NCBI GenBank assembly: GCA_964422145.1
Contig: CAYQZV010000001.1
Location: 193,750-257,749 of the forward strand
Source of the DNA: an uncultured bacterium
GTDB lineage: Bacteria; Fidelibacterota; Marinisomatia; Marinisomatales; JACNKV01
Length of the DNA stretch: 64,000 bases
Reading direction: 5' to 3'
The position numbers and the translations under genes are program-made. Shown piece by piece: positions 19,878 to 59,035 of this stretch. Every line of letters starts with the position of its first letter. Positions within the stretch are counted from its first letter, which is position 1. The notes beneath the pieces are model-generated. The model was given only the letters and a program-made list of their open reading frames with translations. It was not told the origin of the DNA and searched no databases.

Positions 19878-19900
19878 TTAAACAAACAAAACTCTGTAAC

Positions 19901-19934: not shown

Positions 19935-19969
19935 GGATGAAGCATAAATTCCTGTAAATTCCCGTCGTC

Positions 19970-30832: not shown

Positions 30833-31324
30833 TTATGAATCTATTTGTTCAAATATCCCGGTTTTTTTATTTTTTTCAACATTATCATGCTCAAAACATC
30901 TTCCATTCATGACGACATAGACTCCGCCTGGAAGGGTTTGGGCAAACGCCAATGCACTTCCAAGATTAAATAAACCATCCGAACTCCCGAATTTATAGGG
31001 GATCATTGCTCCGGTAAGCACAATAGTTTTATCTATGTTTGCTTCAGCAATCACTCTGGCTGTAACGGTCATCGTATCCGTACCGTGGGTGATTACAAGA
31101 TGTTTTTCTTTCGCATTGCGGCAATTTTCTACAATGATCTGCCGTTCTTGCTCAGTCATTTCGAGGCTGTCTTCCATCATCAGCGTCAGAATAGAAACGT
31201 TCACCCGGTTTCTCCCCAGACTCAGCATTTCCCTGACATGAGATTCTTTAAAGAACAGCGCTCCGCTTATTTCATCATACTCTTTATCAAAGGTTCCGCC
31301 GGTAACTAATATTTTGACTTTCAT
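30833..31324 (-). CDS. Single-domain asparaginase-family protein (N-terminal asparaginase domain only)
   Basis: 163 aa. ILVTGGTFDKEY (TGGT catalytic-Thr motif) and ITHGTDTM. Confidence 0.7.
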   Translation of the reverse strand: MKVKILVTGGTFDKEYDEISGALFFKESHVREMLSLGRNRVNVSILTLMMEDSLEMTEQERQIIVENCRNAKEKHLVITHGTDTMTVTARVIAEANIDKTIVLTGAMIPYKFGSSDGLFNLGSALAFAQTLPGGVYVVMNGRCFEHDNVEKNKKTGIFEQIDS

Positions 31325-34961: not shown

Positions 34962-37900
34962 ATGAGAAAACGAAATCTGTCGGTCTTTACCGTCTTGATG
35001 TTGTTTGGATACCTGTTTGCACAGGGCGTCACAACATCCGGGCTTAGTGGACTGGTTTCAAACCAAGAAAACAAGCCTTTGGTTGGTGCAAACGTTGTGG
35101 TGACCCACGAACCCAGCGGCACCCAATATGGAACCATGGTGCGTGACGGCGGTGTCTACACGATTTTGAATATGCGTGTTGGCGGACCGTACACAGTTGT
35201 TGTTTCATATATTGGGTATAAAACACAAGTAGAGGAAAACGTATTTTTGAGTCTCGGCTCTGCGACGAATGCAAACTTCCAGCTCGTTCAGGAAACGATC
35301 GAAATGGAGGGTGTTGACGTTACAGCAGTTCAAGATGACCTCATGAATGCAAATCGCACGGGTGCAGCTACGTTTGTCGGTGGAGATCTCTTAGCTCAAA
35401 TGCCAACCATTAAACGAAGCACGCGAGACTTAACTCGTCTCGACCCTCGAAGTGATGGGAACTTTAGTTTTGGCGGACGGAACTGGCTGTATAATAATAT
35501 TTCACTGGATGGTTCATACTTTAACAATCCATTTGGATTAGATGATCCTGCTCCGGGCGGACAAGCCAATGCCGAACCTGTGCCGTTTGATGCGGTAGAA
35601 CAGGTTCAGGTTTCTGTTGCTCCCTTTGACGTTCGTGAAGGTGGATTCACAGGTGCCGGTATTAACACTGTGACTAAAAGCGGAACAAACACATTCGGCG
35701 GATCTGTCTACAATTTCAGCCATAGCGAAGCACTTCAAGGTAACTCCGTTGCCGGCTCAGATGTGGTCGCAGACCCATCACTGAACTACAATCAGTCTGG
35801 GTTTACTTTAAGCGGACCGTTTATTTATGACAAAGCATTCTTTTTTGTAAACTATGAAAGAGAGCGCAGAACAGACCCGGGTTCAAACTTTGTTGCTGAT
35901 GAAGACGGTAATATTGAATTTGGAGAATCTCGAGTCAGTGCTGATGTAATGGATGCAATTCGTGACCGTATGATGGATGTCTATGGATATGATACCGGTG
36001 ATTATCAAGGCTACAACCATGAAACAAACAATGACAAATTACTGGTCAAGCTGGACTTCAACTTGAGCGCAAATCACAATGCTGTATTTAGATACAATAT
36101 GTTGGATGCTTCAAGAGACCTTGGTCCGCACGGATTTGTACTAAGTTACAACGGGACAGGTCGCGGACCGAACAGCTCAAGCCTTCCGTTTGAAAACTCA
36201 GGGTATACGATTAATAACAAACTACATTCCTTTGCAGGAGAATTAAACAGCACATTCGGAGGGAATATCTCAAACCGGTTCTTCTTCAGTTACAATATGT
36301 TCCGTGATTGGAGAACCCCAAAAAGCGTTGACTTCCCGACAGTTGAAATTGGTGAAAATGGTTTGACATACACAACGATCGGTCACGAACCGTTCTCGAT
36401 CCATAATATTTTAGATCAGGACGTTCTGCAGATCACGAATAACACATCATACTTTATGGGAAAACATACACTGACAGCCGGGGTGAACTATGAACAGTTT
36501 AAGTTCTTTAACTCCTTCAATATTTTCCGCCATGGATTATTTATGCTGCCAGGAGATTTAGACTTGCTATACCCCGGAGCTGGATATTTGGATTTCTTAG
36601 GTGCCACAACATATTCATCTTTAGATAATTTCTTTATCCGTACGGACAACTCACCCGAAAACACTGATTTTGTTGATTTTAACAGCATGGTTGGTTCGGG
36701 ACCATTTAAAGGCGAACTTATTGATGTTGCTCAGCTTGCCTTTTATGCGCAGGACGAGTTTATGGTCAATGAAAAGCTGAATGTTACAGCCGGGCTTCGT
36801 GTAGACATTCCGATCTATAATACAGAACCGGTTGCAAACCCATTTTCAACTGACTCGCTAAGCTTATTAGATGAAAATGACAACCCCGAAATTGTAGACC
36901 AAGCAAAGCTCCCGGATGCAAAACCACTATATTCACCACGAGTTGGTTTTAACTATGATGTGAAGGGTGACCGCTCCATGCAGCTTCGCGGTGGAACCGG
37001 TATCTTTACCGGCAGACTTCCGTTTGTATGGATTGGTAACGTGATTTCGAACCCAGGAAATAATCCGAATATTCCTGGAGACGGAAGCAACCCAGATCAC
37101 GAAACAGACAGCGGCGAAGGCAGAGAACAAGGCGAAGACGTTGCTTCTGTATTACAGCAATCCTTTGACTTAAATGCAATGGTAGACGATTTTGAATGGC
37201 CGCAAGTTTGGACAACCAACTTAGCCTTAGACCTTGAATTGCCAAGCCAAATGCTGGGTACGTTTGAAATGGTTTATGGAAAAGATTTGAATGCCATTTA
37301 TATGCGGAATGCTGATCTAGTAGTTCCAGTCGATTCTCTTGCAGATGGCCGTCCTTACTTTGGTGGGGTTGGTGCAAACGAGCTGAACTCATTCTACCCG
37401 GGATCGGGTGAAGGAGCATACGTCATTGACAATACGGACGAAGGCTATAATCTGACATTAACCGGACAACTAAGAAAAGTTCACAATTGGGGATTAGTAT
37501 CAAGCATAGCTTATACCTACACACAATCCATGAATAATCTTAAGTCTACTGAAATTGCTTCAGTGCTATTCCAAAGTCAGCCGGTTCAGGGCGACCCGAA
37601 CAAGCCGACTCTTGCACCGTCTGAATTTGGTATTCGTCATCGCTTTATCGGAACAGCTAATTACACACACGACTGGTCTGCAACACAAAGCACAAACGTT
37701 GGGCTCTTCTATGAATTAGCTGAAGGAAATCAGTATGTTTACTCCGGCGGAAACCGTTACTCACACACCTATGCAGGCGATGTGAATGGCGATGGATTCT
37801 CAAACGATCTGATCTACATTCCTGAAAATGCAGACGATATCGTTTTAGCCGATACAACACAATGGGATGCGCTAAATGCATTCATTGAACAGGATCCTTA

Positions 37901-38234
37901 CTTAAGCGAAAACCGCGGCAAGATTGCCGAACGGCATGGACTGGTTAACCCATGGTTCAGCAACATAGATTTGAAAGTCCTTCATGACTATAGCACAGCC
38001 TATGGAAAATTCCAGTTCAGTATGGACATTTTGAATCTTGCTAACTTGTTGAATGACGAGTGGGGCGTACGTAAAGTTGCTAATCCAATGGCGCTTGCTC
38101 CGCTTGGTTTAACAGGCTGGGATGAAAACGGTGAGCCGATTCTTTCATTCAACGATGTCGAAGAAACCTTTATCGATGATCCGGGTCTCTTCTCACGCTG
38201 GCGTATGCAGTTTGGAATCCGTTACATCTTCTAA
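34962..38234 (+). CDS. TonB-dependent receptor, Oar-like (N-terminal carboxypeptidase-regulatory-like domain)
   Basis: 1090 aa. AAGGAG SD and a signal peptide. CarboxypepD_reg-like region GLVSNQENKPLVGANVVVTHEPSGTQYGT...YTVVVSYIGYKT. Plug region followed by a long barrel. C-terminal ...FGIRYIF. Confidence 0.85.
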   Translation: MRKRNLSVFTVLMLFGYLFAQGVTTSGLSGLVSNQENKPLVGANVVVTHEPSGTQYGTMVRDGGVYTILNMRVGGPYTVVVSYIGYKTQVEENVFLSLGSATNANFQLVQETIEMEGVDVTAVQDDLMNANRTGAATFVGGDLLAQMPTIKRSTRDLTRLDPRSDGNFSFGGRNWLYNNISLDGSYFNNPFGLDDPAPGGQANAEPVPFDAVEQVQVSVAPFDVREGGFTGAGINTVTKSGTNTFGGSVYNFSHSEALQGNSVAGSDVVADPSLNYNQSGFTLSGPFIYDKAFFFVNYERERRTDPGSNFVADEDGNIEFGESRVSADVMDAIRDRMMDVYGYDTGDYQGYNHETNNDKLLVKLDFNLSANHNAVFRYNMLDASRDLGPHGFVLSYNGTGRGPNSSSLPFENSGYTINNKLHSFAGELNSTFGGNISNRFFFSYNMFRDWRTPKSVDFPTVEIGENGLTYTTIGHEPFSIHNILDQDVLQITNNTSYFMGKHTLTAGVNYEQFKFFNSFNIFRHGLFMLPGDLDLLYPGAGYLDFLGATTYSSLDNFFIRTDNSPENTDFVDFNSMVGSGPFKGELIDVAQLAFYAQDEFMVNEKLNVTAGLRVDIPIYNTEPVANPFSTDSLSLLDENDNPEIVDQAKLPDAKPLYSPRVGFNYDVKGDRSMQLRGGTGIFTGRLPFVWIGNVISNPGNNPNIPGDGSNPDHETDSGEGREQGEDVASVLQQSFDLNAMVDDFEWPQVWTTNLALDLELPSQMLGTFEMVYGKDLNAIYMRNADLVVPVDSLADGRPYFGGVGANELNSFYPGSGEGAYVIDNTDEGYNLTLTGQLRKVHNWGLVSSIAYTYTQSMNNLKSTEIASVLFQSQPVQGDPNKPTLAPSEFGIRHRFIGTANYTHDWSATQSTNVGLFYELAEGNQYVYSGGNRYSHTYAGDVNGDGFSNDLIYIPENADDIVLADTTQWDALNAFIEQDPYLSENRGKIAERHGLVNPWFSNIDLKVLHDYSTAYGKFQFSMDILNLANLLNDEWGVRKVANPMALAPLGLTGWDENGEPILSFNDVEETFIDDPGLFSRWRMQFGIRYIF

Positions 38235-38266
38235 GATGTGATTTGATTTTCAAATAAAATGAAAAT

Positions 38267-38294
38267 AGAAAAGCCGGCGATTGCCGGCTTTTCT
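38267..38294. terminator. Bidirectional terminator (AGAAAAGCCGGC-GATT-GCCGGCTTTTCT) between the TonB-dependent receptor and nupC
   Basis: Read directly. Confidence 0.8.
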
Positions 38295-38317
38295 ATTATG
38301 GAAAATGAAGAAACTTT

Positions 38318-39535
38318 TTAGATTAATAATCCTGCCAGCGTTGCGGTCAGCCATGAAGCCAAAGCGCCGCCGATCATAGCTTTTAATCCCAACTTTGAAA
38401 GGTGTTTTCGTCGATTGGGAGCAATTCCGCCGATTCCGCCCAATTGAATACCAATCGATGCGAAGTTTGCAAATCCGCAAAGAGCATAACTTGCAATAAT
38501 CGCGGTGCGATCAGAAATCGCACCGGCCGAACGCAGCTCTACTAAATCACCATAGGCGATCAGTTCAGTTAAAACAAGTTTTTCTCCCATAAGCGTACCC
38601 ATTGTTCCAGCTTCTGCCCAGGGGATACCCATTGTCCATGCGAGCGGCATGAATACCCAGCCGAATATTTCCTGGAGGGAAAAACCGAACAAACCAAGAA
38701 GATAGTTTATCATTGCGATAAGCGCAACAAAGGCAACAAGCATAGCTCCCACATTTGCAGCAAGCTTCAACCCGTCAGAAGCCCCTCGCGCAGTGGCTTC
38801 CATCATGTTATCATCTAATTTTTCAACATGAATGTTAACACTTCCTGAGGTTTCAGAGATTTCTGTTTCAGGGTAAATGATTTTTGCAATGACAAGCGCA
38901 GCGGGAGCGCTCATAATCGACGCAGCCATAAGATGTCCCGCGATATTCGGAACATCCTGAAGCATTTTTACGTAAATAGCCAGAACACCGCCAGCCACTG
39001 TGGCAAAACCGCCGACCATAACGGCCATTAACTCAGACTGTGTCATTTTTTCGACAAAAGGACGAACCATTAACGGAGCTTCTGTTTGACCGACAAAGAT
39101 GTTTGCAGACACGCTCAATGTTTCGCTACCAGACGTTTTAAGCGTTTTCTGCATGGCTTTTGCAATCCATTTGATGATAAACTGCATGACTCCAAGGTGG
39201 TACATCACCGCCATCAAAGACGAAAAGAAAATGATGGTCGGCAGAACGCGGAATGCGAAGTTCATCAACGGTCCCTCAACCACACCCGCCCCAAAGGACT
39301 TGAATAAAAAATCACTTCCTGCGTCTGAAAAACTCAGCAGTTTCTTTACAACCGTATCCACACCGGCAAAGAACGGTTGCCCAATCGGTGTTTTTAAAAT
39401 GAATAATGCAAATACAAGCTGGAGAGCTAATCCAAAAATAATGAGTCGTTTGTTAATAGCAGATCGATTGTTAGACATTGCGAATGCAATTCCTAACAAA
39501 ACAAAAATTCCGAGAACACCTGTAAATTCTGACAT
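38318..39535 (-). CDS. nupC: NupC/NupG (CNT) family nucleoside transporter
   Basis: 405 aa. The N-terminus and overall sequence are typical of concentrative nucleoside transporters (...FILKTPIGQPFF..., ...NIFVGQTEAPL..., ...GFANFASIGIQLGG...). Confidence 0.9.
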   Translation of the reverse strand: MSEFTGVLGIFVLLGIAFAMSNNRSAINKRLIIFGLALQLVFALFILKTPIGQPFFAGVDTVVKKLLSFSDAGSDFLFKSFGAGVVEGPLMNFAFRVLPTIIFFSSLMAVMYHLGVMQFIIKWIAKAMQKTLKTSGSETLSVSANIFVGQTEAPLMVRPFVEKMTQSELMAVMVGGFATVAGGVLAIYVKMLQDVPNIAGHLMAASIMSAPAALVIAKIIYPETEISETSGSVNIHVEKLDDNMMEATARGASDGLKLAANVGAMLVAFVALIAMINYLLGLFGFSLQEIFGWVFMPLAWTMGIPWAEAGTMGTLMGEKLVLTELIAYGDLVELRSAGAISDRTAIIASYALCGFANFASIGIQLGGIGGIAPNRRKHLSKLGLKAMIGGALASWLTATLAGLLI

Positions 39536-39695
39536 GAATCAAACCTCCGTTAATTAAAGAAACTATACAACAATGGCTGTATAACTGGGCAGTAAAGTTA
39601 AGAGAAATATTGCGATGAGACACAAGGTATTTCACATGAGAAACTATTGGTAGTCTGCAATCAGTTAATGTAATTTTTATTAAACAAATTATCCC

Positions 39696-40727
39696 ATGAA
39701 AATAAACGGCAAAGATTATCGAACCGTCTGGATGGACGGACAAACCATAAAAACCATTGAACAAAACAAACTTCCTGAATCGTTTGAGATTGTTCAAATC
39801 AACGACATTGATGCAGTGATTTCTGCAATTCAAACGATGGTGATTCGCGGCGCACCTGCAATCGGAGCAATGGGAGCCTACGGTTTGGCACAGGCAATCT
39901 CCTTATCTGAAAACCCCGGACAAGACGAGATGAATGCTTTCCGAAATAAACTGATTACCGCAAGACCGACCGCCTATGATTTAGAACACGGATTAAACTG
40001 GGTGTTGGCTGAGGCAAATAAAGGCAAAACACCGAAAGAGGTGAAGACAAAAGCACTCGACGCTGCAAAGCAATATGCCAATATTTCTGCGGCGGCCTGT
40101 AAAAAAATCGGAGAGTTTGGCAATAAGCTGATACATGATAACGCTAAAATATTAACCCATTGTAATGCAGGCGCATTGGCTACAGTTGATTATGGAACAG
40201 CTCTGTCACCTATTCGTGCGGCACATGACGAAGGGAAATCCGTATTTGTCTTCGTGGATGAAACCCGCCCTCGGCTCCAAGGTGCAAAACTCACGGCCTT
40301 TGAGTTGTACCAAGAAGGAATTGAACACGCAGTGATCGCAGACAATGCCGCCGGTTACTTTATGGCAAACGGAGAAATTGATTTAGTGATCACGGGAACG
40401 GACCGCGTTGCAGCCAATGGTGATATTGCCAATAAAATCGGAACCTATGAAAAAGCAGTTGTGGCAAAAGAACACAATATTCCAGTGTATATTGCAGCAC
40501 CCACTTCTACCATTGATTTTACTTGTCCGACAGGTAAGGACATCCCGATTGAAGAAAGAGACCCGAATGAAGTTCTTTGTGTAAATGATATCCGGGTTAC
40601 CTCAAAAGGAAGCTCTGCGCGAAACCCGGCTTTTGATATTACCCCGGCTAAATTCATTGCAGGTATCATAACCGAATTTGGAATTATTAAACCGAATGAA
40701 TTGGATAAACTGGACAAAAATGGCTGA
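39696..40727 (+). CDS. mtnA: S-methyl-5-thioribose-1-phosphate isomerase (MtnA / eIF-2B-like family)
   Basis: 343 aa. ...MVIRGAPAIGA..., THCNAGALAT, VDETRPRLQG, GTDRVAANGDIANKIGTY. Confidence 0.9.
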   Translation: MKINGKDYRTVWMDGQTIKTIEQNKLPESFEIVQINDIDAVISAIQTMVIRGAPAIGAMGAYGLAQAISLSENPGQDEMNAFRNKLITARPTAYDLEHGLNWVLAEANKGKTPKEVKTKALDAAKQYANISAAACKKIGEFGNKLIHDNAKILTHCNAGALATVDYGTALSPIRAAHDEGKSVFVFVDETRPRLQGAKLTAFELYQEGIEHAVIADNAAGYFMANGEIDLVITGTDRVAANGDIANKIGTYEKAVVAKEHNIPVYIAAPTSTIDFTCPTGKDIPIEERDPNEVLCVNDIRVTSKGSSARNPAFDITPAKFIAGIITEFGIIKPNELDKLDKNG

Positions 40728-41310
40728 GATATACACCGGCACTAAATTCACATCCATTCGATTGTCAAACAGCGTTTTAAGTTCTTCAAAAACCCAATTA
40801 TTAATATCTTGGGGTGTTCAATTTGGAATGAAAGGGCTTGCTCCGAAAACCGAATCCGGTCACGCCGGCAATCTCAGTGTTCGTACAAAGAACGGGTTTT
40901 TGATTACGGGCGCAGGTCAGTCTTTAGAAGGTTTGGATCAAAACGCTGTTTCGGAAGTGGTTTCATTTTTTATCAATACAAAAAAAGTTTTATTTCATGG
41001 AATTCCTGAACCCAGCTCAGAAGCTTTCATGCACGGACTCATCTATCAAGACCGTCCGGATGTGAATGCAATATTTCACGGTCACAACGACACATTAACA
41101 AGATTTGCTTCGCGGCTAGGATATCCTGAAACACAAAAAGAAGTACCCTATGGTACGATTGAAGGAGCAGAGATGGTTAGGGATATTTTAAGATCAGAAG
41201 AGTTTTGTATTATAAAAAAGCACGGATTTGTTTCACTGGGCGCAACAGCAGATTTTGCCGGCGAAGCCGTACTAGAGGTGTTGGCGAAATTAAAAACAGT
41301 AACGCCTTAG
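40720..41310 (+). CDS. Class II aldolase/adducin-domain protein (MtnB-type dehydratase or Ald2-type MTRu-1-P / 5-deoxyribulose-1-P aldolase)
   Basis: ATG at 40720 overlaps the mtnA stop (ATGGCTGA). Motifs AGNLSVRT, EPSSEAFMHGLIY, AIFHGHN, KKHGFVSLG. Confidence 0.75.
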   Translation: MAEIYTGTKFTSIRLSNSVLSSSKTQLLISWGVQFGMKGLAPKTESGHAGNLSVRTKNGFLITGAGQSLEGLDQNAVSEVVSFFINTKKVLFHGIPEPSSEAFMHGLIYQDRPDVNAIFHGHNDTLTRFASRLGYPETQKEVPYGTIEGAEMVRDILRSEEFCIIKKHGFVSLGATADFAGEAVLEVLAKLKTVTP

Positions 41311-42557
41311 AAAAGCTCTCGCAAAACACGGCGAACTTTTTCCCTCATGATATCTTCTTCTGAAACCACTCTGTTTTCCATTAGGATTTTCCCTCGGCAA
41401 ATCGTTGTCTGAATACATTCGCTCTGTGCGGAGTAAACAAGGTTTGACACGAGGTTGTGATTTGGAATAAGGTGCGAATCATTTAAATCAATTAAAAGCA
41501 AATTTGCCAACATTCCTTCTTTTATTTCACCAGCCGGCAAACCTAACAAAGAAGCCCCGCCTTTTGTTGCAGTAGAAAACACCTCTTCGGCCGTCATTAA
41601 AGACGGATCAGCTGTATGAGATTTTTGGAGAAGAGCCGCGATTTTCATTTCCTCCATCATGTTTAGGTTATTGTTGGCTGCGCAACCATCTGTGCCCAAG
41701 CCGACACGCAGTTTAGCAGATTGAATACGCTGATAAGGAAACACACCCGAGCTGAGCTTCATATTTGAGACAGGACAATGAACCACACCGACACCATGAT
41801 CAGCCAGGATAGAAATCTCATGGTCAGACAACCAATTTGTATGAACCGCAATAAGATGCGGACCTAAAAAATTAATACTGTGTAAATACTCCACGGGTCG
41901 CATGCCTGTGTTTTCAACCCATTCGTCCACCTCGGTTTGTGTTTCTGATAAATGCATGTGTAAAAGCAAGCCGTTTTCACGCGCAAAATCCCTTGCCCAT
42001 AGTAAGCCGGGTTTTGAAACGGTATAAAGAGCGTGTACTCCGACAGTATATGTAACATTAGGGGAATGTTCATTGCGGTTGTGATATAAATTGATCTGTT
42101 CTTCAATTTGTTTTCTGGACTGTTCAGAATCGCCCAGATCTAGAAAAGCGCTTGAAAGATGAGCGAAAAGTCCGGAATCCTTCACAGCCTGCGCTGTTCC
42201 GTTGTAATGCCAATACATATCATTGAAGTGAGTTGTTCCGGTTTTTATCATTTCAAGGGCGGCAAGTCTTGCACCCCAGTAGACATGTTCCTCGGTCAAT
42301 TTAGACTCAATAGGCCAAATCTTTGTTGTCAGCCAATCATGCAGTTTCATATCGTCTGCATATCCGCGTAAAAGTGTCATCGCAGAATGGGTATGCGCGT
42401 TCACAAACGACGGGATAATAGCCAGCCCTTCTCCGGAAATGATTTTTTTCGCATGGAGATTTAAAGACTTTCCGATGATTTTAATCGTTTCACCTTCTAT
42501 AAAAACATCTGTTTTGCATCCATCGAGCAGTACATTTTTAATTAGGATAGTATTCAT
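41307..42557 (-). CDS. mtaD: 5'-methylthioadenosine / S-adenosylhomocysteine (5'-deoxyadenosine) deaminase, amidohydrolase superfamily
   Basis: 416 aa. SFVNAHTHSAMTLLRGYADDMKLHDWL, ...HLSET..., ...GTDG.... Confidence 0.85.
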   Translation of the reverse strand: MNTILIKNVLLDGCKTDVFIEGETIKIIGKSLNLHAKKIISGEGLAIIPSFVNAHTHSAMTLLRGYADDMKLHDWLTTKIWPIESKLTEEHVYWGARLAALEMIKTGTTHFNDMYWHYNGTAQAVKDSGLFAHLSSAFLDLGDSEQSRKQIEEQINLYHNRNEHSPNVTYTVGVHALYTVSKPGLLWARDFARENGLLLHMHLSETQTEVDEWVENTGMRPVEYLHSINFLGPHLIAVHTNWLSDHEISILADHGVGVVHCPVSNMKLSSGVFPYQRIQSAKLRVGLGTDGCAANNNLNMMEEMKIAALLQKSHTADPSLMTAEEVFSTATKGGASLLGLPAGEIKEGMLANLLLIDLNDSHLIPNHNLVSNLVYSAQSECIQTTICRGKILMENRVVSEEDIMREKVRRVLRELF

Positions 42558-42746
42558 ATGATTCTATTTAAGCCTCTTCAAAAATCGGGTATAATCTAAT
42601 CTGCTTAGGATACTCATTACTTGAGTTTTTTATGAAATTATTTTCTCAAAGAGAAATTAGATACTTACATATAATGGCGTCTTCGGTGTAATCTTTCCTG
42701 TCTTTTTCACAAGATTTATTCTAGACTACAAAAAGAGGTTTATACT

Positions 42747-44042
42747 TTGAAAGCAGATCAAGATAAAATAATGATCATTGTCGGAGCCCAGTGGGGCGAT
42801 GAAGGAAAAGGTAAAATAACAGATTTCTTTGCAGGAGAATCTTCTTACGTTGTGCGCTTTCAAGGAGGAAACAATGCGGGGCATACGATTATCACAGGAG
42901 GTGAAACGTACAAATTGCATTTGATTCCATCTGGTGTCATATATAATAAACCGGCAAACATTATCGGAAACGGCGTCGTGGTTGACCCGAAAACACTTTT
43001 GGATGAAATTCAGATGCTGAAAGACCGGGGAATTGATCCAAAGGTGCTTGTTAGTGATCGTGCCCATGTGATTTTTCCTTATCACATTTCATTGGATGAA
43101 GCCCTAACAAAACACCAGGGCGGGTTAGCGGCAGGCAGTACAAAACGCGGAATTGCCCCCGCATATGCAGATAAAATGTTTCGAAACGGCATTCGGATCG
43201 TTGACCTGCTCAATAAAGAGATATTTAGAGAAAAGCTCCAAAAAGCATATTCGTTTTCAAAAGTGTTAGTAGAAGATGCTTTAGGCGGAAAACTGGAATT
43301 CGATTTTGAGACAGTCTTTCAAAGCTATGTGGAATACGGTGAGCAGTTGAAACCATATATTAAAGATATTTCTGTTCTTTTATATGAAGCATATAAAAAT
43401 GGGGAAAGAATTTTATTTGAAGGCGCCCAAGGGATGAGCCTGGACGTGGATCACGGCATCTTTCCACATACGACCAGCAGCAATACAATTGCTGGAAATA
43501 TTTCCAACGGATGCGGTGTAACCTTTCGCAAGATCGACCGGATCATCGGTATCACAAAAGCCTATGTCAGTCGGGTGGGGCAAAGCCCGTTTCCAACTGA
43601 GTTGGGTGAGGATGAGGCGGAGACACTTCGCACAAAAGGAGGAGAATTTGGAACAACAACCGGCAGGCCCCGTCGCGTTGGATGGCTCGATTTAGTACAG
43701 TTAAAACAAGCCGTTCGCGTAAACGGACTTACAGAAATTGCTCTGACCAAACTGGATATTTTAACCGGATATAAACAGCTATCAGTCTGTGTTGCCTATA
43801 AAGCAGATGGAAAAACCATCCATGAAATGCCGGCAGACCTTGCCTTGTATCGCAAGGCGACACCGGTTTATACAACATTGCCCGGCTGGGAGACGCTCGA
43901 TGAATCATCGATTGAAAAAGGATACTCAAGCCTTCCGAAAGAACTCCGAGACTATGTCCGATTTATTGAAGAAGAAGTCGAATGTCCGGTGAGTATTATA
44001 TCGGTAGGACCGCAGCGGCACGAAACCATTATAAGACCATGA
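42747..44042 (+). CDS. purA: Adenylosuccinate synthase
   Basis: 431 aa. GAQWGDEGKGK, GGNNAGHT. TTG start at 42747 with AAGAGG 7 nt upstream; the alternative ATG at 42771 lacks an SD. Confidence 0.95.
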   Translation: MKADQDKIMIIVGAQWGDEGKGKITDFFAGESSYVVRFQGGNNAGHTIITGGETYKLHLIPSGVIYNKPANIIGNGVVVDPKTLLDEIQMLKDRGIDPKVLVSDRAHVIFPYHISLDEALTKHQGGLAAGSTKRGIAPAYADKMFRNGIRIVDLLNKEIFREKLQKAYSFSKVLVEDALGGKLEFDFETVFQSYVEYGEQLKPYIKDISVLLYEAYKNGERILFEGAQGMSLDVDHGIFPHTTSSNTIAGNISNGCGVTFRKIDRIIGITKAYVSRVGQSPFPTELGEDEAETLRTKGGEFGTTTGRPRRVGWLDLVQLKQAVRVNGLTEIALTKLDILTGYKQLSVCVAYKADGKTIHEMPADLALYRKATPVYTTLPGWETLDESSIEKGYSSLPKELRDYVRFIEEEVECPVSIISVGPQRHETIIRP

Positions 44043-44593
44043 GCAATAAAATGAGAACACACACAGATGTCGAAAAAATCTTGATCGACGAAAAAAATAT
44101 TCTAAACAGAATTGATGAACTTGCGGAACAAATTGAAAAGGATTATGCCGATGTGGATAACATCATGATCATCTCGATTCTCAAAGGATCGTTTATGTTC
44201 ACCTCGGACCTGGTGAAACGCCTATCCATTCCGCATATCGTGGACTTTATGGCGTTAAGTACCTACGGGGCTGAGTCCAAAGCAAGCGGTGAGGTTCGGG
44301 TGTTGATGGACCTTCGGCATCCGGTGCAAAACCAGCATGTCTTGGTCGTTGAAGATATTATTGACAGCGGATTAACCCTGCAGTTTCTTGAACGCATTCT
44401 GATGTCGCGCAATGTTGCATCGCTTAAAACCTGCGTGCTAACCCAAAAAGAAGGGAAAGACCATAACATAAAAACGGATTATCTCGGGTTTACGATTCCG
44501 GATGTTTGGGTGGTTGGCTACGGACTTGATTTCGCAGATAAACACCGCACGCTGCCGTATATTGCGGAGCTAAAACCGGAAGTGTATCAATAG
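44039..44593 (+). CDS. hpt: Hypoxanthine phosphoribosyltransferase
   Basis: ATG at 44039 overlaps the purA stop (ATGA). PRPP motif VLVVEDIIDSGLTL. Confidence 0.92.
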   Translation: MSNKMRTHTDVEKILIDEKNILNRIDELAEQIEKDYADVDNIMIISILKGSFMFTSDLVKRLSIPHIVDFMALSTYGAESKASGEVRVLMDLRHPVQNQHVLVVEDIIDSGLTLQFLERILMSRNVASLKTCVLTQKEGKDHNIKTDYLGFTIPDVWVVGYGLDFADKHRTLPYIAELKPEVYQ

Positions 44594-44604
44594 ATTGGAT
44601 AACC

Positions 44605-45954
44605 ATGTCTGAACCTTTATTACAATTATCTCCGCTGGATGGCCGATATGAAAACCTAACTAAACCGCTGGCGGAATGTTTTTCTGAAAAAGCGCTGATG
44701 ATCCAGCGCATCAAGGTCGAAATTGAATATCTGATTGCACTCGGCGATGCCCCTACGGTTGAAGAACGACCGCGTTTCTCTGATTCCGAAAAAAACAATT
44801 TGAGACATATTTATCAACATTTCACAACAGAAGATGCTGCCGCTGTCAAAGCTATTGAAGCAGAGACGAATCATGACATCAAAGCTATTGAATATTTTCT
44901 TCGTACAAAAACCGACAAAAATATCCACCCGTGGATTCATTTTGCACTTACATCTGAAGACATCAATAATTTAGCGTACACATTAATGTGGAAAGACGGT
45001 GTTGAAAAAGTTTTCTTACCTGAGCTGAAAAAAACAAAGAGTGCATTAAACGAATTAGCAGACAAATATGCCGGTTTGCCGATGCTTGCAATGACACACG
45101 GGCAGCCCGCCGTTACAACAACATTCGGGAAAGAACTAGCAGTGTTTTCAACGCGGCTTGAACGGCAAATAGCCCAACTGACGTCCCAAGTCTTGTGCGG
45201 AAAACTTAATGGTGCCGTCGGGACGTGGGCAGCGCATTCAATCGCCTGTCCCGAAACAGACTGGATACAGTTCTCACAGAACTTTGTAAAAACCCTTGGG
45301 TTGGAACCAAATTTGATCACGACACAGATCGAACCTCATGATTCATTGATTGAAAGCGCACATCAAGTTGTTCGTATCAACTCTATCCTTATTGATTTAT
45401 GCCGTGATTTTTGGATGTACATCAGCAGGGGAATTTTAACACAGAAAAACGTGGCTTCTGAGGTCGGATCATCAACCATGCCTCAAAAAATAAATCCGAT
45501 TCAATTTGAAAATGCAGAAGGAAACCTCGGTATTTCAAACGCGATGTTTAATCACTTTGCTGAAAAACTTCCCATATCCAGAATGCAGAGAGATTTGTCC
45601 GACAGCACTGTTCAAAGGAATCTCGGCGCTGCGATGGGGTATGCATTTATTGCACTAAAAAACATAGGTCGCGGATTGGCAAAAATTGATGTTGACACGA
45701 AACAGATGGAGAATGAAGTATCATCCCGCTGGGAAGTGTTGGGTGAAGCCGTCCAAACGTTGTTGAGAAAAGCAGGACGTGCAGATGCATATGAAATTCT
45801 GAAAGAAAAAACGCGCGGAAAGCAATTGGACAAAGAAAATTATTTAGCACTAATCGACGAATTGCCTTTATCGAAATCGGACAAACAGCGGCTAAAAAAA
45901 TTGACGCCTAACGACTATACAGGACAGGCAGAGAAGCTCGTTAAACGTTTATGA
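44605..45954 (+). CDS. purB: Adenylosuccinate lyase
   Basis: 449 aa. Fumarate-lyase signature SSTMPQKINP. Confidence 0.95.
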   Translation: MSEPLLQLSPLDGRYENLTKPLAECFSEKALMIQRIKVEIEYLIALGDAPTVEERPRFSDSEKNNLRHIYQHFTTEDAAAVKAIEAETNHDIKAIEYFLRTKTDKNIHPWIHFALTSEDINNLAYTLMWKDGVEKVFLPELKKTKSALNELADKYAGLPMLAMTHGQPAVTTTFGKELAVFSTRLERQIAQLTSQVLCGKLNGAVGTWAAHSIACPETDWIQFSQNFVKTLGLEPNLITTQIEPHDSLIESAHQVVRINSILIDLCRDFWMYISRGILTQKNVASEVGSSTMPQKINPIQFENAEGNLGISNAMFNHFAEKLPISRMQRDLSDSTVQRNLGAAMGYAFIALKNIGRGLAKIDVDTKQMENEVSSRWEVLGEAVQTLLRKAGRADAYEILKEKTRGKQLDKENYLALIDELPLSKSDKQRLKKLTPNDYTGQAEKLVKRL

Positions 45955-46749
45955 TATAAATCGGGGATAGTCGGTAATGATCCCCGATACACCCTGATCT
46001 ACAAGCCGGTCAACCGCAGGCTTAGTATTGACCGTCCAAACATTCAAAGCCAATCCCTTTTTCTTTGCGAATGCGATGAGTTTTTCATCAACAAACTCCG
46101 CCGTTGGATGAAGGCAGTCAGGATGCACCCAATACATACACCATTTTAAATGCATGTTTTCACTGTCAATAATGTATCCGGTCGGGATATCTTTTTGTAG
46201 AAACTTTACGATCCAAACAATAATCGGATTGAAGCTGGAAACAATCACCTTTTGTTTTATTTTTCCCGCCTGAATCAAACGAACCACTGCACGAGCGGTT
46301 CGGGGATCAAATATTTTATGTGTTTTGATCTCAATGTTAATTCTAAGGTTTTCGGGAAGTGCTTTAGACACATCTTCTAGCAGATAGAGCCGATCCGTTT
46401 TATTTGGATGAGACCGAACACCCGCATGAACAAAAGACAAATCCTCCCAATCTGAATCTGGAATAAACCCGGAACCATCTGTTTCCCGCTCGAGATCAAT
46501 ATTGTGCGAGCAAACCACTTTACCGTCCCGCGTACCGATGACATCAATCTCGATTCCCTTGAAGCCGGCATCCATTGCAGCAACATATGAGGACAAGGTG
46601 TTTTCAGGAGCATCGTGCAAAGAACCTCGGTGCCCGATGTACATCGGTGTATCGGTGTAGAAATCCTTTGGGAACACGGGTTTCCACGAAAACAGTACCC
46701 ACAATATAACGATAAGGATCCCGACACAAAGTATAAGGAAAATATTCAT
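45949..46749 (-). CDS. Glycerophosphodiester phosphodiesterase family protein (membrane-anchored)
   Basis: HRGS...APENTL motif with an N-terminal TM helix. ATG at 46749 is preferred; the track start at 46767 is TTG and would overlap the upstream gene. Confidence 0.85.
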   Translation of the reverse strand: MNIFLILCVGILIVILWVLFSWKPVFPKDFYTDTPMYIGHRGSLHDAPENTLSSYVAAMDAGFKGIEIDVIGTRDGKVVCSHNIDLERETDGSGFIPDSDWEDLSFVHAGVRSHPNKTDRLYLLEDVSKALPENLRINIEIKTHKIFDPRTARAVVRLIQAGKIKQKVIVSSFNPIIVWIVKFLQKDIPTGYIIDSENMHLKWCMYWVHPDCLHPTAEFVDEKLIAFAKKKGLALNVWTVNTKPAVDRLVDQGVSGIITDYPRFIS

Positions 46750-54630: not shown

Positions 54631-54761
54631 GTGAAAAAAACTGTTTTATATATATCTCTTGTAATATTATATTTCTAACAGATATAACGATTATAACAGT
54701 AATAATAGTTATAATAGAATCTGGGATTCGCGTGTATATCAAAAAATCGAATGGAGCCACA

Positions 54762-56003
54762 ATGAAGAGAATTACCATATTCATATTAACATTAGCCGTG
54801 TTCATCTCTGCACAATATCCCGTCAATCTTGATGTTACTCTCACTCCGTATGTAACATATTATATTTCCTCGGTTGATTTAAATACAGGAAGCTCAAGTG
54901 TTCCGATTTTTCAAGCAAGACTTTCAAACAATACTTCAGACAGCGTGTCGGTGATCATGGATTTTGAAGTCATTATCGACTCAGACTTTTTGGGTTTGGA
55001 CAGTGAAACCATCATCAAAGCGAAAACGAACCCCTTCTTTTTTGAAAACGATATCTTTATTTCAAATATGGACATGACAGTTGACACAAGAGGCATTTAC
55101 GATGTTGAAGGAAATCAAGTAGAGATTTCAGTCGTCATAGAAGAAAAAATCGACATGGATATGTCAACAGCTGAAGACTTATTTAACGCTGTTGTGCAAT
55201 CCGGGAAACTGCCTGATGGGAATTACAGCTATCGGGTAAATTTATATAACGGTGAGGATGAAACGGAAGTTTGGGGCGAGTTTGAAGAAACACTCAGCGT
55301 TACCTCTCCAACCTATTTACAGCTGATCTCTCCCGGCGGACAGCTTGCGGATACGACATCGAATGAAATATTCACGAATTATCCCGTGCTTCAGTGGGAA
55401 TCAGATCCATGCAACTACATTGACCCCGAAACCGGAGATTACGGTTGTCAATATTTTCTGCGGGTAGCGGAGTTTAATCCAGAAATTCATTCTTCAGTTG
55501 ATGAAGCCATTGAATCCACAACCCGATTACCGCTGAACCAAGCTGAGGATTGGGAATTGGTCGGAACCGGCGTGACATCATTTCAGTATCCTGCAATCGA
55601 CGTTGGAGAATTAGAGCAGGGAAAAGTATACGTCTGGCAATGTTTAAAACGGATAAAAACCACGGATGGTTTCGACGAAGTATTTAGTGACATTATGGTG
55701 TTTAAAGTCAAGGATTTTACCGAAACCGCAGAGGAAGAAGCGGAACCGGCATCCAGCGGTGAAGATGCACCGGCGTCAGCTGCACTCCAGTCCATCATTG
55801 GAGGGGATCAATTTGAAGCCCTGTTTGGTGAAGGAGGTTCAGCCTATGGATATTTACCAACGGGAAACATTCTGCATAACAATACCGTTGTCGACCTTTC
55901 GTTTGTCCAATCCTTGTTGTCAGGCGGGATAGAAGAAACCGATTCGGAGGGAAACACCTCCTACCGCCCGATCTCCATCATCTCAGTTGAGGTGTCCGAA
56001 TGA
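54762..56003 (+). CDS. Hypothetical secreted protein (413 aa) with an acidic C-terminal region. First gene of a three-gene envelope operon.
   Basis: ATG at 54762 with GGAG 5 nt upstream. Signal peptide MKRITIFILTLAVFISA. I recognise no family. The stop overlaps the next gene's start (ATGA). Confidence 0.65.
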   Translation: MKRITIFILTLAVFISAQYPVNLDVTLTPYVTYYISSVDLNTGSSSVPIFQARLSNNTSDSVSVIMDFEVIIDSDFLGLDSETIIKAKTNPFFFENDIFISNMDMTVDTRGIYDVEGNQVEISVVIEEKIDMDMSTAEDLFNAVVQSGKLPDGNYSYRVNLYNGEDETEVWGEFEETLSVTSPTYLQLISPGGQLADTTSNEIFTNYPVLQWESDPCNYIDPETGDYGCQYFLRVAEFNPEIHSSVDEAIESTTRLPLNQAEDWELVGTGVTSFQYPAIDVGELEQGKVYVWQCLKRIKTTDGFDEVFSDIMVFKVKDFTETAEEEAEPASSGEDAPASAALQSIIGGDQFEALFGEGGSAYGYLPTGNILHNNTVVDLSFVQSLLSGGIEETDSEGNTSYRPISIISVEVSE

Positions 56004-56671
56004 AACAAATAATCATATCAGTCATGTTTCTCACCATGTTGTTCGGTGAGAGAAAAATTGCCATTGCTGTTAAATCAAAAGGCACCGTAAATCATGTATT
56101 TGCAGGTCAGGAAACAACAGCGCCATTGAAACTCGGAGCCGGATTGGCCAATGAAGACAGAATTCAAACAGACGAAGACGGATTTGCGGTGGTGATGTAT
56201 TTGGATGACAAAACCACAATGAAAATTCGTGAAGACTCTGATTTTCTGGTTGGAGGACAGAGATCGGAAAGCGGGATTAATAAACGTGTTTTTCTCAATT
56301 ATGGACAATTGAAAGTCTCGGTCACAAAACAAAAAGGAAAAGAATTTATTATTGCGACAACAACATCAGTTGCCTCAGTAAAAGGAACGGAAATCATTGT
56401 TGTTTCAGACCCGTTGTTGGGGGATTTGTTCTCCACATTAACCGGATCAATTGTTGTTACAAATAATATCACCGGAGATTCAACGGCTGTCAATGTAGGA
56501 GAGACGGCAAGTTCTACTCCAGATGGCGAACTAGATCTTACTGAAACGAATGAGGAATTGCTTCCTGAATTTGAAACAGAAGAAGAAACCGGCGAAGAAA
56601 TTAATGAATTAAAGTTCGAAATCGAAGATGCAAACGGAAACATAAAGGAAGTAATTATTCGGTATCAATAA
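56000..56671 (+). CDS. FecR-domain protein with an acidic C-terminal tail
   Basis: 223 aa with an N-terminal hydrophobic segment. FecR-like beta-rich core (...KLGAGLANEDRIQTDEDGFAVVMYLDDKTTMKIREDSDFLV...TTTSVASVKGTEIIVV...). Tail rich in E/T. Confidence 0.6.
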   Translation: MKQIIISVMFLTMLFGERKIAIAVKSKGTVNHVFAGQETTAPLKLGAGLANEDRIQTDEDGFAVVMYLDDKTTMKIREDSDFLVGGQRSESGINKRVFLNYGQLKVSVTKQKGKEFIIATTTSVASVKGTEIIVVSDPLLGDLFSTLTGSIVVTNNITGDSTAVNVGETASSTPDGELDLTETNEELLPEFETEEETGEEINELKFEIEDANGNIKEVIIRYQ

Positions 56672-56701
56672 TGTTTTTCTAAAACAAGAAACAGGCTCAT
56701 T

Positions 56702-59035
56702 ATGAAAAAAAGAATAATTAAAATACTGTTTATGATTGGAATAACATCACAATGTTTTGCTGATGATATTCTAATTTTTAGTCCGATGCCGGATGAAACG
56801 GTATTCGGAACTGATGTGTTGATCGCCGCATCGTTTTATTCTTTGGGTGGTGTATCAACCGATCGAATCCAAGTGTTTTTAAATGATATTGAGATCACCA
56901 ATCAGGCGGAAGTAGAACCGGAAATGGTCAGCTATGCGCCTTCAATACTAAACTCAGGTAAACATATCGTATTGATCAGAATTTTTCGGGACAACATGGA
57001 CCCGCTTGAACAGACCTGGGGTTTTACGGTTACCGGAGAGAAAAAATGGACAGATGAAATTGATTGGGGTGGAAAAATAACATCTGATTACCGATTGGAA
57101 CAAGCGGGAGAAGAAGAGCTGTCCCTTGGAAATGTCGGTGTATACTTTAACGGTTCAGCCTATGAATGGTTTAAACTAAAAACCAGCATCAAACTTGCAT
57201 CAGATGAAGACCCGCTTCTTCAGCCTAGAAACCGCTTTACATTGCAGGCATCTTTAGGTAAATATTTTGATCTAGGTTTTGGTGATACAAATCCAAGAAT
57301 GACGCGATTCACGTTAGACGGGAAACGGGTCCGCGGGTTTAATGCCCATCTGAAACTAAAGTATTTAAAAGTTCATTTTATCACCGGAGAACTCGTCCGT
57401 GCGATCGATGGAAACTTAAATGAAAACGAACCGAACTCGGCTTATGTTATTTTTCACCAAGGGTTTCAGGACTCACTTGCCACATTTAGGTTGAACCGGC
57501 AAGGATACACGTTCAAACAAAAGATTTTAGCCGGCCGACTCAGCTTTGGCCGAGGAAAGAATTTTCAGTTGGGCTTGAATTTTTTGAAGGTAAAAGACGA
57601 TATAAATAGTGTTAATCCTGTTATAGAAAAGGCCAACATTGTTGTTGACAATGAAGACTGGGCATTGGCATCGGGTGTCTATACATTTGATGAAATTACT
57701 AGATTAAACGGAGCCCCGACAGGAAACGGATATTATTATCAAATACTTCAAGACGAAGAAAGCGATTGGGGTGGAGCAACTCCGAAAGATAATCTTGTTA
57801 TCAGTTCCGATATCGGAATGTATTTTGACAATAAAAAGATACTATTAGAAGGTGAAGCCGCTTTAAGCTTATACAATAAAGATATTTGGAACGGCGCGAT
57901 GTCCATTGCAGAGATGGACACACTCATGGATGACAGTCTCGACAATTCGCTGGCGGGATCATTTGACCTTTCAACACTCCCTTTTGACCCACAGGATATT
58001 GAAGATATTTTTGTGATTGGTTTTAATATGGTTCCGCTAGCACCGATCGACATTTCAATTTTTACCGATTCATCTAAAACAAGCATAACAGACGCAATCT
58101 TAAATATGCCCTCTTTATCTTATAGGGGAAGAGCAAAGCTAAATTATTTTGGTCATTATTTCACGGCAGAATATTCCCGGATCGGCCCTGAATACAGGTC
58201 ATTGGCAAACCCTTATTTATTGGCGGGATTTAATCAGGTAACAATTAGTGACAGAATCCAATTATTTAAAAACAGGGTTCTTTTAACCTTAGAATATCGA
58301 CATCAAAACGATGATGTTCTCACCGCAGAAACAAATGTAACGACCGAAAATCGAATCCTGACAAACATGACTTTGATTCCAGGGCCGGGATTACCAACCT
58401 TCACAGTTGGGTTTAGAAACACGAATCGAGAAAATGGAATTACTGATATCGAAGAGTTTATCAATCAGACGACAGATAGCACGACGTACAAGGATAACCG
58501 TGAAAACACAAATACAATAAGCTTTACGTCATCAGCGACTTATGTATTCAATCTTTTTGACTCACGGCATACGGTATTTGGCACATTTGTCTCGTATAAT
58601 AAAGCCGATCAGATAACCGATGATCGTGAACTGGACCCGGCATATGTTGATCCTAAACTTGTTTCAAATGTGTTTAATTTTGCTTTGACATCGCGATATG
58701 GTTTTATCCCGTTAAAAACAACACTGAGTTTTACAATGAACACCAGTGAGTTCAGTATTGCCCCCGGAGAAGTTGCCGACCAGCAATTCATGTCCGGAAA
58801 ACTGAGCGTTGAGTATGGATTCATTGATAATAAACTCGCCGTGTTGGGAGGACTTGATTTTATGACCGGAGAGGGGATCCAAGATGTTTCAAAATTTGGG
58901 ATGAACGGCGGCGTTCGGTTTAAACTGATTGACGGACTGATGGCACAAGCCACACTCAATGTCAGACAAAAATCTGTAGCCGGAGAGTCTTCATCTGAAG
59001 TGATAGGCGTTGCGACGCTTTCGTATCTTTTCTAG
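56702..59035 (+). CDS. Hypothetical outer-membrane beta-barrel protein (777 aa) with an N-terminal Ig-like domain
   Basis: Signal peptide MKKRIIKILFMIGITSQCFA. Long run of alternating amphipathic strands. C-terminal ...ATLSYLF (aromatic terminus). Confidence 0.6.
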   Translation: MKKRIIKILFMIGITSQCFADDILIFSPMPDETVFGTDVLIAASFYSLGGVSTDRIQVFLNDIEITNQAEVEPEMVSYAPSILNSGKHIVLIRIFRDNMDPLEQTWGFTVTGEKKWTDEIDWGGKITSDYRLEQAGEEELSLGNVGVYFNGSAYEWFKLKTSIKLASDEDPLLQPRNRFTLQASLGKYFDLGFGDTNPRMTRFTLDGKRVRGFNAHLKLKYLKVHFITGELVRAIDGNLNENEPNSAYVIFHQGFQDSLATFRLNRQGYTFKQKILAGRLSFGRGKNFQLGLNFLKVKDDINSVNPVIEKANIVVDNEDWALASGVYTFDEITRLNGAPTGNGYYYQILQDEESDWGGATPKDNLVISSDIGMYFDNKKILLEGEAALSLYNKDIWNGAMSIAEMDTLMDDSLDNSLAGSFDLSTLPFDPQDIEDIFVIGFNMVPLAPIDISIFTDSSKTSITDAILNMPSLSYRGRAKLNYFGHYFTAEYSRIGPEYRSLANPYLLAGFNQVTISDRIQLFKNRVLLTLEYRHQNDDVLTAETNVTTENRILTNMTLIPGPGLPTFTVGFRNTNRENGITDIEEFINQTTDSTTYKDNRENTNTISFTSSATYVFNLFDSRHTVFGTFVSYNKADQITDDRELDPAYVDPKLVSNVFNFALTSRYGFIPLKTTLSFTMNTSEFSIAPGEVADQQFMSGKLSVEYGFIDNKLAVLGGLDFMTGEGIQDVSKFGMNGGVRFKLIDGLMAQATLNVRQKSVAGESSSEVIGVATLSYLF

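Follow-up and report, generated by a model that had tools for sequence, protein, structure and literature searches.

Between positions 38318 and 45954 of a 64-kb stretch of contig CAYQZV010000001.1 from an uncultured bacterium (the whole stretch is called the window here), seven adjacent genes encode a nucleoside transporter (nupC), the isomerase MtnA, a class II aldolase-fold protein, an amidohydrolase-type deaminase and three purine enzymes (purA, hpt and purB). As judged by sequence, the aldolase-fold protein appears to be an orthologue of neither MtnB nor Ald2/DrdA and to represent a third, compact lineage of the fold, the members of which are commonly encoded beside MtnA. This separate family is the more notable feature of the locus and was missed by an earlier note on this DNA, which had stressed the joining of salvage genes to purA-hpt-purB. 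We favour, with moderate confidence, a reading in which the locus would salvage by-products of S-adenosylmethionine (SAM) through a deaminase-first route of the dihydroxyacetone phosphate (DHAP)-shunt type, alongside genes for converting hypoxanthine to AMP.

Protein families were assigned with NCBIfam and Pfam profiles. The seven open reading frames (ORFs) lie at, or very near, the positions previously assigned to them, and all seven identities given in the earlier note proved right. The features of the locus are as follows (bit scores with model cutoffs in brackets).

38264-38297, minus strand: strong terminator hairpin 3' of nupC, a 15-bp stem followed by a T run
38318-39535, minus strand: nupC, CNT-family concentrative nucleoside transporter (TIGR00804 414 bits, cutoff 442; PF01773, PF07670, PF07662)
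39536-39695, no strand assigned: divergent spacer between nupC and mtnA, with short conserved promoter-like blocks
39696-40727, plus strand: mtnA (NF004326 412.6 bits, cutoff 271; TIGR00512 384 bits, cutoff 279)
40720-41310, plus strand: compact class II aldolase-fold gene, 196 aa (PF00596 68.5 bits)
41307-42557, minus strand: MtaD/DadD-type amidohydrolase gene, putative 5'-substituted adenosine deaminase (best models PRK08393 and PRK06038)
42558-42746, no strand assigned: divergent spacer between the deaminase gene and purA, with conserved blocks in a four-species alignment
42747-44042, plus strand: purA, adenylosuccinate synthase (NF002223 556 bits, cutoff 402; PF00709 564 bits)
44039-44593, plus strand: hpt, hypoxanthine(-guanine) phosphoribosyltransferase (TIGR01203 193.7 bits, cutoff 150)
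44605-45954, plus strand: purB, adenylosuccinate lyase (NF006764 626 bits, cutoff 446; PF00206, PF08328)

A compact aldolase family partnered with MtnA

The aldolase gene starts at the ATG at 40720, as in public gene calls (the mechanically derived ORF had a TTG start), and from there its product carries the conserved N-terminus of its family, MAEIYTGTKF. This start overlaps the mtnA stop in ATGGCTGA, an overlap that bears out the translational coupling of the two genes described in the earlier note. Every NCBIfam model scored the protein at 50 bits or less, against cutoffs of 137-650, and the same was true of 68 relatives. The best match, to a haloarchaeal ribulose-1-phosphate aldolase model, is weak (50 bits) and level with that to FucA_Meth; FucA models gave 35-47 bits (cutoffs 264-400), and the MtnB models TIGR03328 and PRK09220 gave 33.7 bits (cutoff 137) and 35.3 bits (cutoff 226), covering residues 22-127 only. 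In an exhaustive profile search, the family comprised 236 clusters (50% identity) at E<=1e-30.

The metal and phosphate site is intact throughout the family: G50, N51, S53, S99, E101, H105, Y109, H120, H122, G145 and G169 are invariant, and the zinc- and phosphate-binding residues (GNxS, PSSE at the position of FucA Glu73, and the His triad) are invariant or nearly so. T138 is also nearly invariant, and a TxxE-x-PYGT motif has its Glu and PYGT conserved. The family profile matched FucA (1e-22) and Bacillus thuringiensis DrdA (9e-17) over the full length, and Aquifex aq_1979 (Protein Data Bank (PDB) 2IRP; 8e-18) and human APIP (5e-4) over the N-terminal half only. An AlphaFold2 model of the window protein (pLDDT 94.5) has an aldolase-like fold, for which Foldseek returned FucA first (E 9e-12, TM ~0.7), while DrdA came 21st and 25th and 2IRP 37th. 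When aligned with Ald2 of Escherichia coli S88, APIP (sequence verified) and aq_1979, the family was found to add about 20 N-terminal residues, with a family-specific N-terminal strand, MAEIYxGxKF, and to lack both the C-terminal tail of FucA and the whole segment from the HxH to the PY/GT motif (deleted in 12 of 12 aligned members). That segment holds Tyr113 in FucA and Ald2, and E-[ML]-[IL]-K, a motif read from APIP against 2IRP, in APIP and aq_1979. Glu139 of APIP is reported to be catalytic (work of Kang and colleagues, 2014).

It is because of these differences in profile, structure and motif, from MtnB on one side and from the FucA-close Ald2 on the other, that we assign the protein to a third lineage, with the placement drawn from few verified references at identities of ~20-25%. 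The earlier note had offered a choice between MtnB and the Ald2 of the DHAP shunt; its leaning away from MtnB stands, but the protein does not appear to be an Ald2 orthologue either. Short archaeal class II aldolases (FucA_Meth NF040649, PRK08660 and PRK08333) and the haloarchaeal NF053831 are of similar size (models of 179-208 aa). Their models provide the best, if weak, NCBIfam matches, and FucA_Meth, which we take to be typified by Methanocaldococcus jannaschii MJ1418, aligns with the window protein over its full length. However, at 41-50 bits it stays far under their cutoffs (203-300) and is not a member, and the MtnA partner and the N-terminal motif set the compact family apart. Members carry the generic JGI label ribulose-5-phosphate 4-epimerase/fuculose-1-phosphate aldolase. 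We found no description of the family or of the seven-gene cluster in the full-text literature, which is weak evidence, as subscription journals lie mostly outside that coverage.

A scan of one genome per species yielded 164 relatives, and 80 loci were fetched, all from metagenome-derived assemblies. These spanned Marinimicrobia, Bacteroidota/Chlorobi, Verrucomicrobia, Cloacimonadota, Armatimonadota, Margulisbacteria, WOR-1/Saganbacteria, Omnitrophota, Planctomycetota, Syntrophales, the Candidate Phyla Radiation (CPR) and several DPANN archaeal lineages. Of 76 informative loci, 53 had mtnA directly upstream of the aldolase gene and on its strand, with estimated gaps mostly of -34 to +15 nt. 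This adjacency extended over more than 10 phyla, including Marinimicrobia, Bacteroidota, Verrucomicrobia, Cloacimonadota, Armatimonadota, Margulisbacteria, WOR-1, Omnitrophota, CPR and DPANN archaea. The two proteins also occur fused. A single gene (L089 5029-6714), on a contig with the archaeal markers prefoldin, UPF0147 and Lhr helicase, encodes a 561-aa protein with IF-2B and Aldolase_II domains (P0052), and P0022 is a fragment of a further MtnA-aldolase fusion.

In six genomes (L019, L034, L041, L043, L044 and L074; three archaeal, one WOR-1, one CPR and one unclassified), the pair is joined by a gene for the methylthioadenosine phosphorylase MTAP, which scored above the TIGR01694 cutoff in 4 of 4 cases tested. 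All of these genomes but L019 have, in addition, the adenine phosphoribosyltransferase gene apt alongside (its products above the equivalog cutoff in 3 of 3 tested), so that five of them possess a four-gene MTAP-Apt-MtnA-aldolase module. Such a module would be self-sufficient only if its last enzyme yielded a central metabolite, which argues for aldol cleavage.

These contexts bear on whether the protein could be a divergent MtnB-type dehydratase, with mtnA and the aldolase gene providing steps two and three of methionine salvage and the later genes lying elsewhere. MtnB (human APIP 4M6R, with aq_1979 as the MtnB-type reference) has the same fold and His triad and usually partners MtnA; each of the 68 family members matches MtnB models, weakly (best E-value 4.7e-19), and the similarity to 2IRP is noted above. 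But the scores fall far under the model cutoffs, the matches to MtnB models, 2IRP and APIP are limited to the N-terminal half, and the E-[ML]-[IL]-K segment is missing. Linked downstream methionine-salvage genes are missing too: when neighbours within 5 kb were clustered in 75 loci and recurrent families scanned, none was MtnC, MtnD, MtnW, MtnX or MtnK, and the 64-kb window contained no mtnC, mtnD, mtnW or mtnX. The absence of mtnC/mtnD/mtnW-type genes that the earlier note reported nearby therefore holds in these 75 loci as well. A dehydratase product would, moreover, be a dead end in the four-gene modules. An msrA gene (peptide methionine sulfoxide reductase; L090 8408-8941), directly upstream of mtnA-aldolase in one relative, is a further point on the dehydratase side. 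Overall, we regard a dehydratase as very unlikely.

Other neighbours recurred in particular phyla. Directly 3' of the aldolase gene in eight verrucomicrobial loci (for example, L035 10561-11172 and L060 5855-6466) lies a gene for a YihX-like haloacid dehalogenase (HAD)-type phosphatase, which scored 77-95 bits, below cutoff, with a glucose-1-phosphatase model. It was considered as MtnC or MtnX and rejected in favour of the YihX-like assignment; it could dephosphorylate a sugar-1-phosphate of the pathway. Apparent aldolase-HAD fusions in Verrucomicrobia (360-aa ORFs) were discarded, as their N-terminal half is an out-of-frame read across the GC-rich aldolase gene. In Planctomycetota, an acetyl-CoA synthetase gene lies directly upstream of the compact aldolase gene, without mtnA (L082 7878-9911 and L084 7833-9911), an arrangement loosely consistent with acetaldehyde or acetate being formed further down the pathway.

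A predicted deaminase-first route

Cells that use SAM in polyamine synthesis or radical chemistry are obliged to remove MTA (5'-methylthioadenosine) as well as 5'-deoxyadenosine. In the route we propose, NupC would import nucleosides, and MTA or 5'-deoxyadenosine, made in the cell or imported, would be converted by the MtaD/DadD-type deaminase to the inosine analogue. A phosphorylase encoded elsewhere would then release hypoxanthine and a 5-substituted ribose-1-phosphate, which MtnA would isomerize to the ribulose-1-phosphate form. The compact protein, as a proposed 5-methylthio/5-deoxy-ribulose-1-phosphate aldolase, would cleave this, giving DHAP together with either 2-(methylthio)acetaldehyde or acetaldehyde, while Hpt, PurA and PurB would rebuild AMP from hypoxanthine.

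The predicted specificities of the first enzymes fit this scheme. In addition to scoring above both MtnA models, the mtnA product falls below the cutoff of the ribose-1,5-bisphosphate (R15P) isomerase model (TIGR00511 222 bits, cutoff 314); its best PDB match is TM0911 (1T9K; 1e-82), and B. subtilis MtnA (4e-68) is closer than R15P isomerases (~1e-44). Its sequence places it in the MtnA clade and not that of R15P isomerases, and it is predicted to isomerize 5-methylthioribose-1-phosphate and, by inference, 5-deoxyribose-1-phosphate. A blastn search of mtnA against E. coli genomes gave no match.

The best structural matches of the deaminase are the MTA/S-adenosylhomocysteine (SAH) deaminase 4F0R (1e-69), Pseudomonas aeruginosa PA3170 (4DYK and 4GBD; 1e-64) and Tm0936 (2e-58), with an 8-oxoguanine deaminase structure at 2e-40. 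Models for guanine and cytosine deaminases gave much lower scores (guanine deaminase TIGR02967, 132 bits). By this ranking the protein appears to group with MTA/SAH/5'-deoxyadenosine deaminases, in keeping with the MtaD/DadD type first suggested for it. It is 33% identical to Tm0936 in a BLASTP alignment (Tm0936 sequence verified against 1P1M) and, in Tm0936 numbering, retains the metal and catalytic residues HxH (H55, H57), HxxE (H200, E203), H228 and D279, as well as W75, E84 and a His aligned with H173. R136 is replaced by Ser and R148 is kept. In Tm0936, W75, E84 and H173 reportedly bind the nucleoside and R136/R148 the homocysteine carboxylate (work of Hermann and colleagues, 2007), and the change of R136 to Ser, with R148 kept, suggests weaker binding of SAH by the window enzyme.

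Known systems supply precedents for the separate parts. In the DHAP shunt known from Rhodospirillum rubrum and from extraintestinal E. coli, which runs through MtnP (or Pfs plus MtnK), MtnA and Ald2, and in the 5-deoxyribose pathway of B. thuringiensis (DrdK/DrdI/DrdA), an MtnA-type isomerase is likewise followed by the product of a downstream zinc-type class II aldolase-fold gene; the clusters sometimes include transporters, and the products proposed here would be the same, DHAP and an aldehyde (PMC10986504, PMC6079011). The window differs in that its aldolase lies outside the Ald2/DrdA/FucA clade, being a 196-aa protein with the MAEIYxGxKF strand and without the Tyr113 loop and C-terminal tail, and in that a deaminase would provide the entry in place of MtnP or Pfs plus MtnK, with no kinase or phosphorylase in the cluster. 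Deaminase-first routes are summarized in PMC6302742 (citing Guan 2011/2012 and Miller 2014/2018) for P. aeruginosa (PA3170 plus the 5'-methylthioinosine (MTI) phosphorylase PA3004) and M. jannaschii (DadD plus the MTI phosphorylase MTIP and MJ0454). Such routes are therefore not knowledge from methanogens only, as the earlier note had it. Both use a deaminase of the same amidohydrolase subgroup and yield hypoxanthine as the base; the P. aeruginosa sugar proceeds to methionine salvage, and that of M. jannaschii has been proposed to feed 6-deoxy-5-ketofructose-1-phosphate (DKFP) synthesis (as cited in PMC6079011 and PMC6302742). In the window, by contrast, the deaminase gene lies beside mtnA-aldolase and, as a feature of a single subclade, also beside hpt-purA-purB.

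Several points weigh against this route as a whole. No PNP_UDP_1 phosphorylase was detected with Pfam among all large ORFs of the 64-kb window, where the earlier note had also seen none, or in the 10 kb past its right end, and neither a purine nucleoside phosphorylase (PNP) nor MtnP or MTIP adjoined any fetched deaminase-containing locus. The deaminase scores below equivalog cutoffs (PRK08393 438 bits, cutoff 617; PRK06038 436, cutoff 609; DadD PRK07228 319, cutoff 522), and its Tm0936-like relatives also deaminate adenosine and SAH. E. coli Ald2 is a close FucA paralogue (8e-81), whereas the window protein matches FucA at only 1.6e-7, and with the Tyr113 loop and the C-terminal tail lost, its aldolase activity is not assured. 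Arabidopsis DEP1, an MtnB-type enzyme, cleaves 5-deoxyribulose-1-phosphate, a case of MtnB promiscuity (PMC6079011).

The same genes could instead carry out ordinary nucleoside degradation, in which NupC would import adenosine or inosine, adenosine would be deaminated to inosine, PNP would give hypoxanthine and ribose-1-phosphate, an MtnA-like enzyme would convert ribose-1-phosphate to ribulose-1-phosphate and the aldolase would yield DHAP and glycolaldehyde, bypassing phosphopentomutase and the pentose phosphate pathway. An importer and hpt adjoin the module, the top NCBIfam match of the aldolase, weak and tied as it is, is to a ribulose-1-phosphate aldolase, Tm0936-type deaminases accept adenosine and archaeal MTAPs have broad specificity. 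We nevertheless consider this quite unlikely: the isomerase exceeds the cutoffs of the MtnA equivalog models, the phosphorylases of the modules in DPANN, CPR and WOR-1 exceed the cutoff for MTAP and do not score as PNP, and we know of no dedicated ribose-1-phosphate isomerase.

Conservation and control of the purine-gene flank

The order of the cluster is kept in relatives with 64-68% aldolase identity (L004-L008), so that the conservation anticipated in the earlier note is found. The full order nupC / mtnA-aldolase / deaminase / purA-hpt is present in the window and in L004, L007 and L008 with nupC 85-91% identical and in the same position in the latter three. L007, a metagenome-assembled genome of Candidatus Neomarinimicrobiota, is the closest labelled relative of the cluster, and on that ground the window probably comes from a Marinimicrobia-related bacterium. 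In L008, purB comes right after hpt, the order also seen in the window. L004 (68% aldolase identity) has five further genes, with purL/M/Q/C/E domain signatures, between hpt and purB (14540-20591), and because of this insertion the purA-hpt-purB of the window resembles a pared-down or alternative version of a more extensive purine operon. Linkage of the deaminase gene to mtnA-aldolase reaches further, to L004, L007, L008, L023/L090, Armatimonadota L012, L013, Cloacimonadota L014, L038. The deaminase gene is directly 3' of the aldolase gene on the same strand in L038 and L083 (the L083 contig begins inside the aldolase gene, and the position of mtnA therefore falls outside it).

The flank itself adds to the points against a single salvage system. 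The adjacency of nupC and purA-hpt is limited to a narrow subclade, and at 65% aldolase identity L023/L090 has the arrangement msrA-mtnA-aldolase / deaminase-aminotransferase, without the nupC and purA flanks. As L023/L090 keeps these three genes alone, mtnA-aldolase-deaminase is the conserved core, with the purine flank particular to one subclade. The link to purA-hpt-purB emphasized in the earlier note is thus present in four lineages but weaker than it seemed. purA and purB are also housekeeping genes. Finally, the seven genes are not one operon but form four transcription units, nupC (minus), mtnA-aldolase (plus), deaminase (minus) and purA-hpt-purB (plus).

The search for regulatory signals covered Rfam, spacer alignments and motif counts in the window, and no element common to the four units was found. 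Rfam at gathering thresholds gave no match in the whole window, and at E<=5 over 38000-46200 it gave no riboswitch in either divergent spacer, the places where a conserved regulatory RNA had been thought worth seeking. The only hits near the genes were sub-threshold small RNA matches at 38205-38330, which are spurious because they fall on the nupC terminator hairpin. Scans for sigma-70 promoters and terminators showed no excess over shuffled expectation, except for that terminator. Short blocks are nonetheless conserved. TGTAATTTTT, ~25 nt before the mtnA ATG, is conserved in an alignment with three relatives and looks like a promoter or leader element. Upstream of purA, TTACAT(A/G)TAAT and GTGTAATCTT are conserved in the four-species alignment and are probably the purA promoter and leader. 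The near-palindrome TTACAT(A/G)TAA(T), followed by GTGTAATCTT, lies ~60-80 nt before purA (42665-42675 and equivalents in L004, L007 and L008) and may serve as an operator or as the -10 element of a promoter. Relatives keep the palindrome TTACATGTAA that precedes purA, but it is unenriched in the window (2 matches against 2.6 expected) and therefore gives no sign of a regulon motif.

These observations raise the possibility that the functional unit is mtnA-aldolase-deaminase only, with the nupC and purA-hpt-purB flanks reflecting neighbourhood inheritance in one clade, which would be compatible with the proposed enzymology. The separate transcription units, the negative searches for a shared motif or riboswitch, the replacement of nupC and purA by msrA and an aminotransferase in L023/L090 and the place of purA-hpt at the head of a large de novo purine operon in L004 all point that way. 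Yet four species-level lineages (the window, L004, L007 and L008), between which the intergenic mean column identity is ~56%, have kept the adjacency, and Hpt, PurA and PurB are precisely the enzyme trio that would take hypoxanthine to AMP. The pairing of base salvage with the sugar module proposed in the earlier note also recurs, having arisen independently as Apt with MTAP-MtnA-aldolase in DPANN, CPR and WOR-1. Apt accompanies the adenine-releasing MTAP and Hpt accompanies the deaminase, as the proposed pathway predicts, and this pairing supports a functional link without proving it. On these grounds we see neighbourhood inheritance as a serious alternative, though on the unlikely side.

Genomic surroundings and implications

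Several details of the locus and its surroundings complete the description. The nupC terminator lies between convergent genes, 34962-38234 (plus) and nupC (minus). The deaminase and aldolase genes are also convergent, their 3' ends overlapping by 4 nt. The hpt start is most likely at 44039 (an ATGA overlapping the purA stop), with an alternative at 44051, and gene calls give 184 and 180 aa. Elsewhere in the window, mnmG, mnmE and yidC (all minus) and dnaA (plus) are grouped at 1566-8437, with a 650-bp gap (6428-7075) preceding dnaA; because of these genes the window probably spans or adjoins the chromosomal replication origin. Two giant proteins (8847-14921, 2024 aa; 15186-19313, 1375 aa) have C-terminal FlgD_ig or Por_Secre_tail domains and no Pfam match over most of their length; they are probably cargo of a type IX secretion system and point to a bacterium of the Fibrobacterota-Chlorobiota-Bacteroidota (FCB) group. 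Phosphoenolpyruvate carboxykinase and pyruvate:ferredoxin oxidoreductase are also encoded. A gene for a FecR-domain protein (56000-56671) sits between ORFs of 423 aa and 777 aa (54732-59035), neither with a Pfam match, and the trio is kept together in the Logan contigs L087 and L088. The 777-aa ORF (56702-59035) was considered as PurL, having the same length as the formylglycinamide ribonucleotide (FGAR)-amidotransferase-like (PurL-type) gene of L004, and rejected. A 163-aa ORF (30833-31324) that adjoins an ArsC-family gene matches the asparaginase N-terminal domain only and is either a truncated or a stand-alone asparaginase domain.

A wider reading can be placed on the compact family. Together with MtnA, proteins with the MAEIYxGxKF strand could form the core of a distinct and ancient route for disposing of 5'-deoxy-nucleoside or nucleoside sugars in many uncultivated, largely anaerobic phyla and in DPANN. 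The chemistry may then be unlike that of Ald2, either cleavage of ribulose-1-phosphate made from ordinary ribose-1-phosphate or another reaction on methylthioribulose-1-phosphate. We regard this wider reading as improbable; if it is true and the first chemistry applies, streamlined organisms such as DPANN and CPR would possess a four-gene route from nucleosides to DHAP that is independent of both the pentose phosphate pathway and RuBisCO.

The deaminase-first, DHAP-shunt-type reading overturns no established idea, as there is precedent for every step. Its interest lies in the organisms concerned, because the disposal of MTA and 5'-deoxyadenosine is largely unannotated in most uncultivated anaerobes, CPR and DPANN. 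Curated models miss the compact aldolase, and its names stay generic (class II aldolase or epimerase). If the reading is true, mtnA plus the compact aldolase gene would offer a two-gene signature for annotating pathways of the DHAP-shunt type, and MtnA-like genes in DPANN-, CPR- and WOR-1-labelled genomes may be part of such a route and not of the RuBisCO nucleoside pathway. The window would then represent a deamination-first variant with the hypoxanthine-to-AMP enzymes encoded alongside, a testable case of side-by-side salvage of sugar and base.

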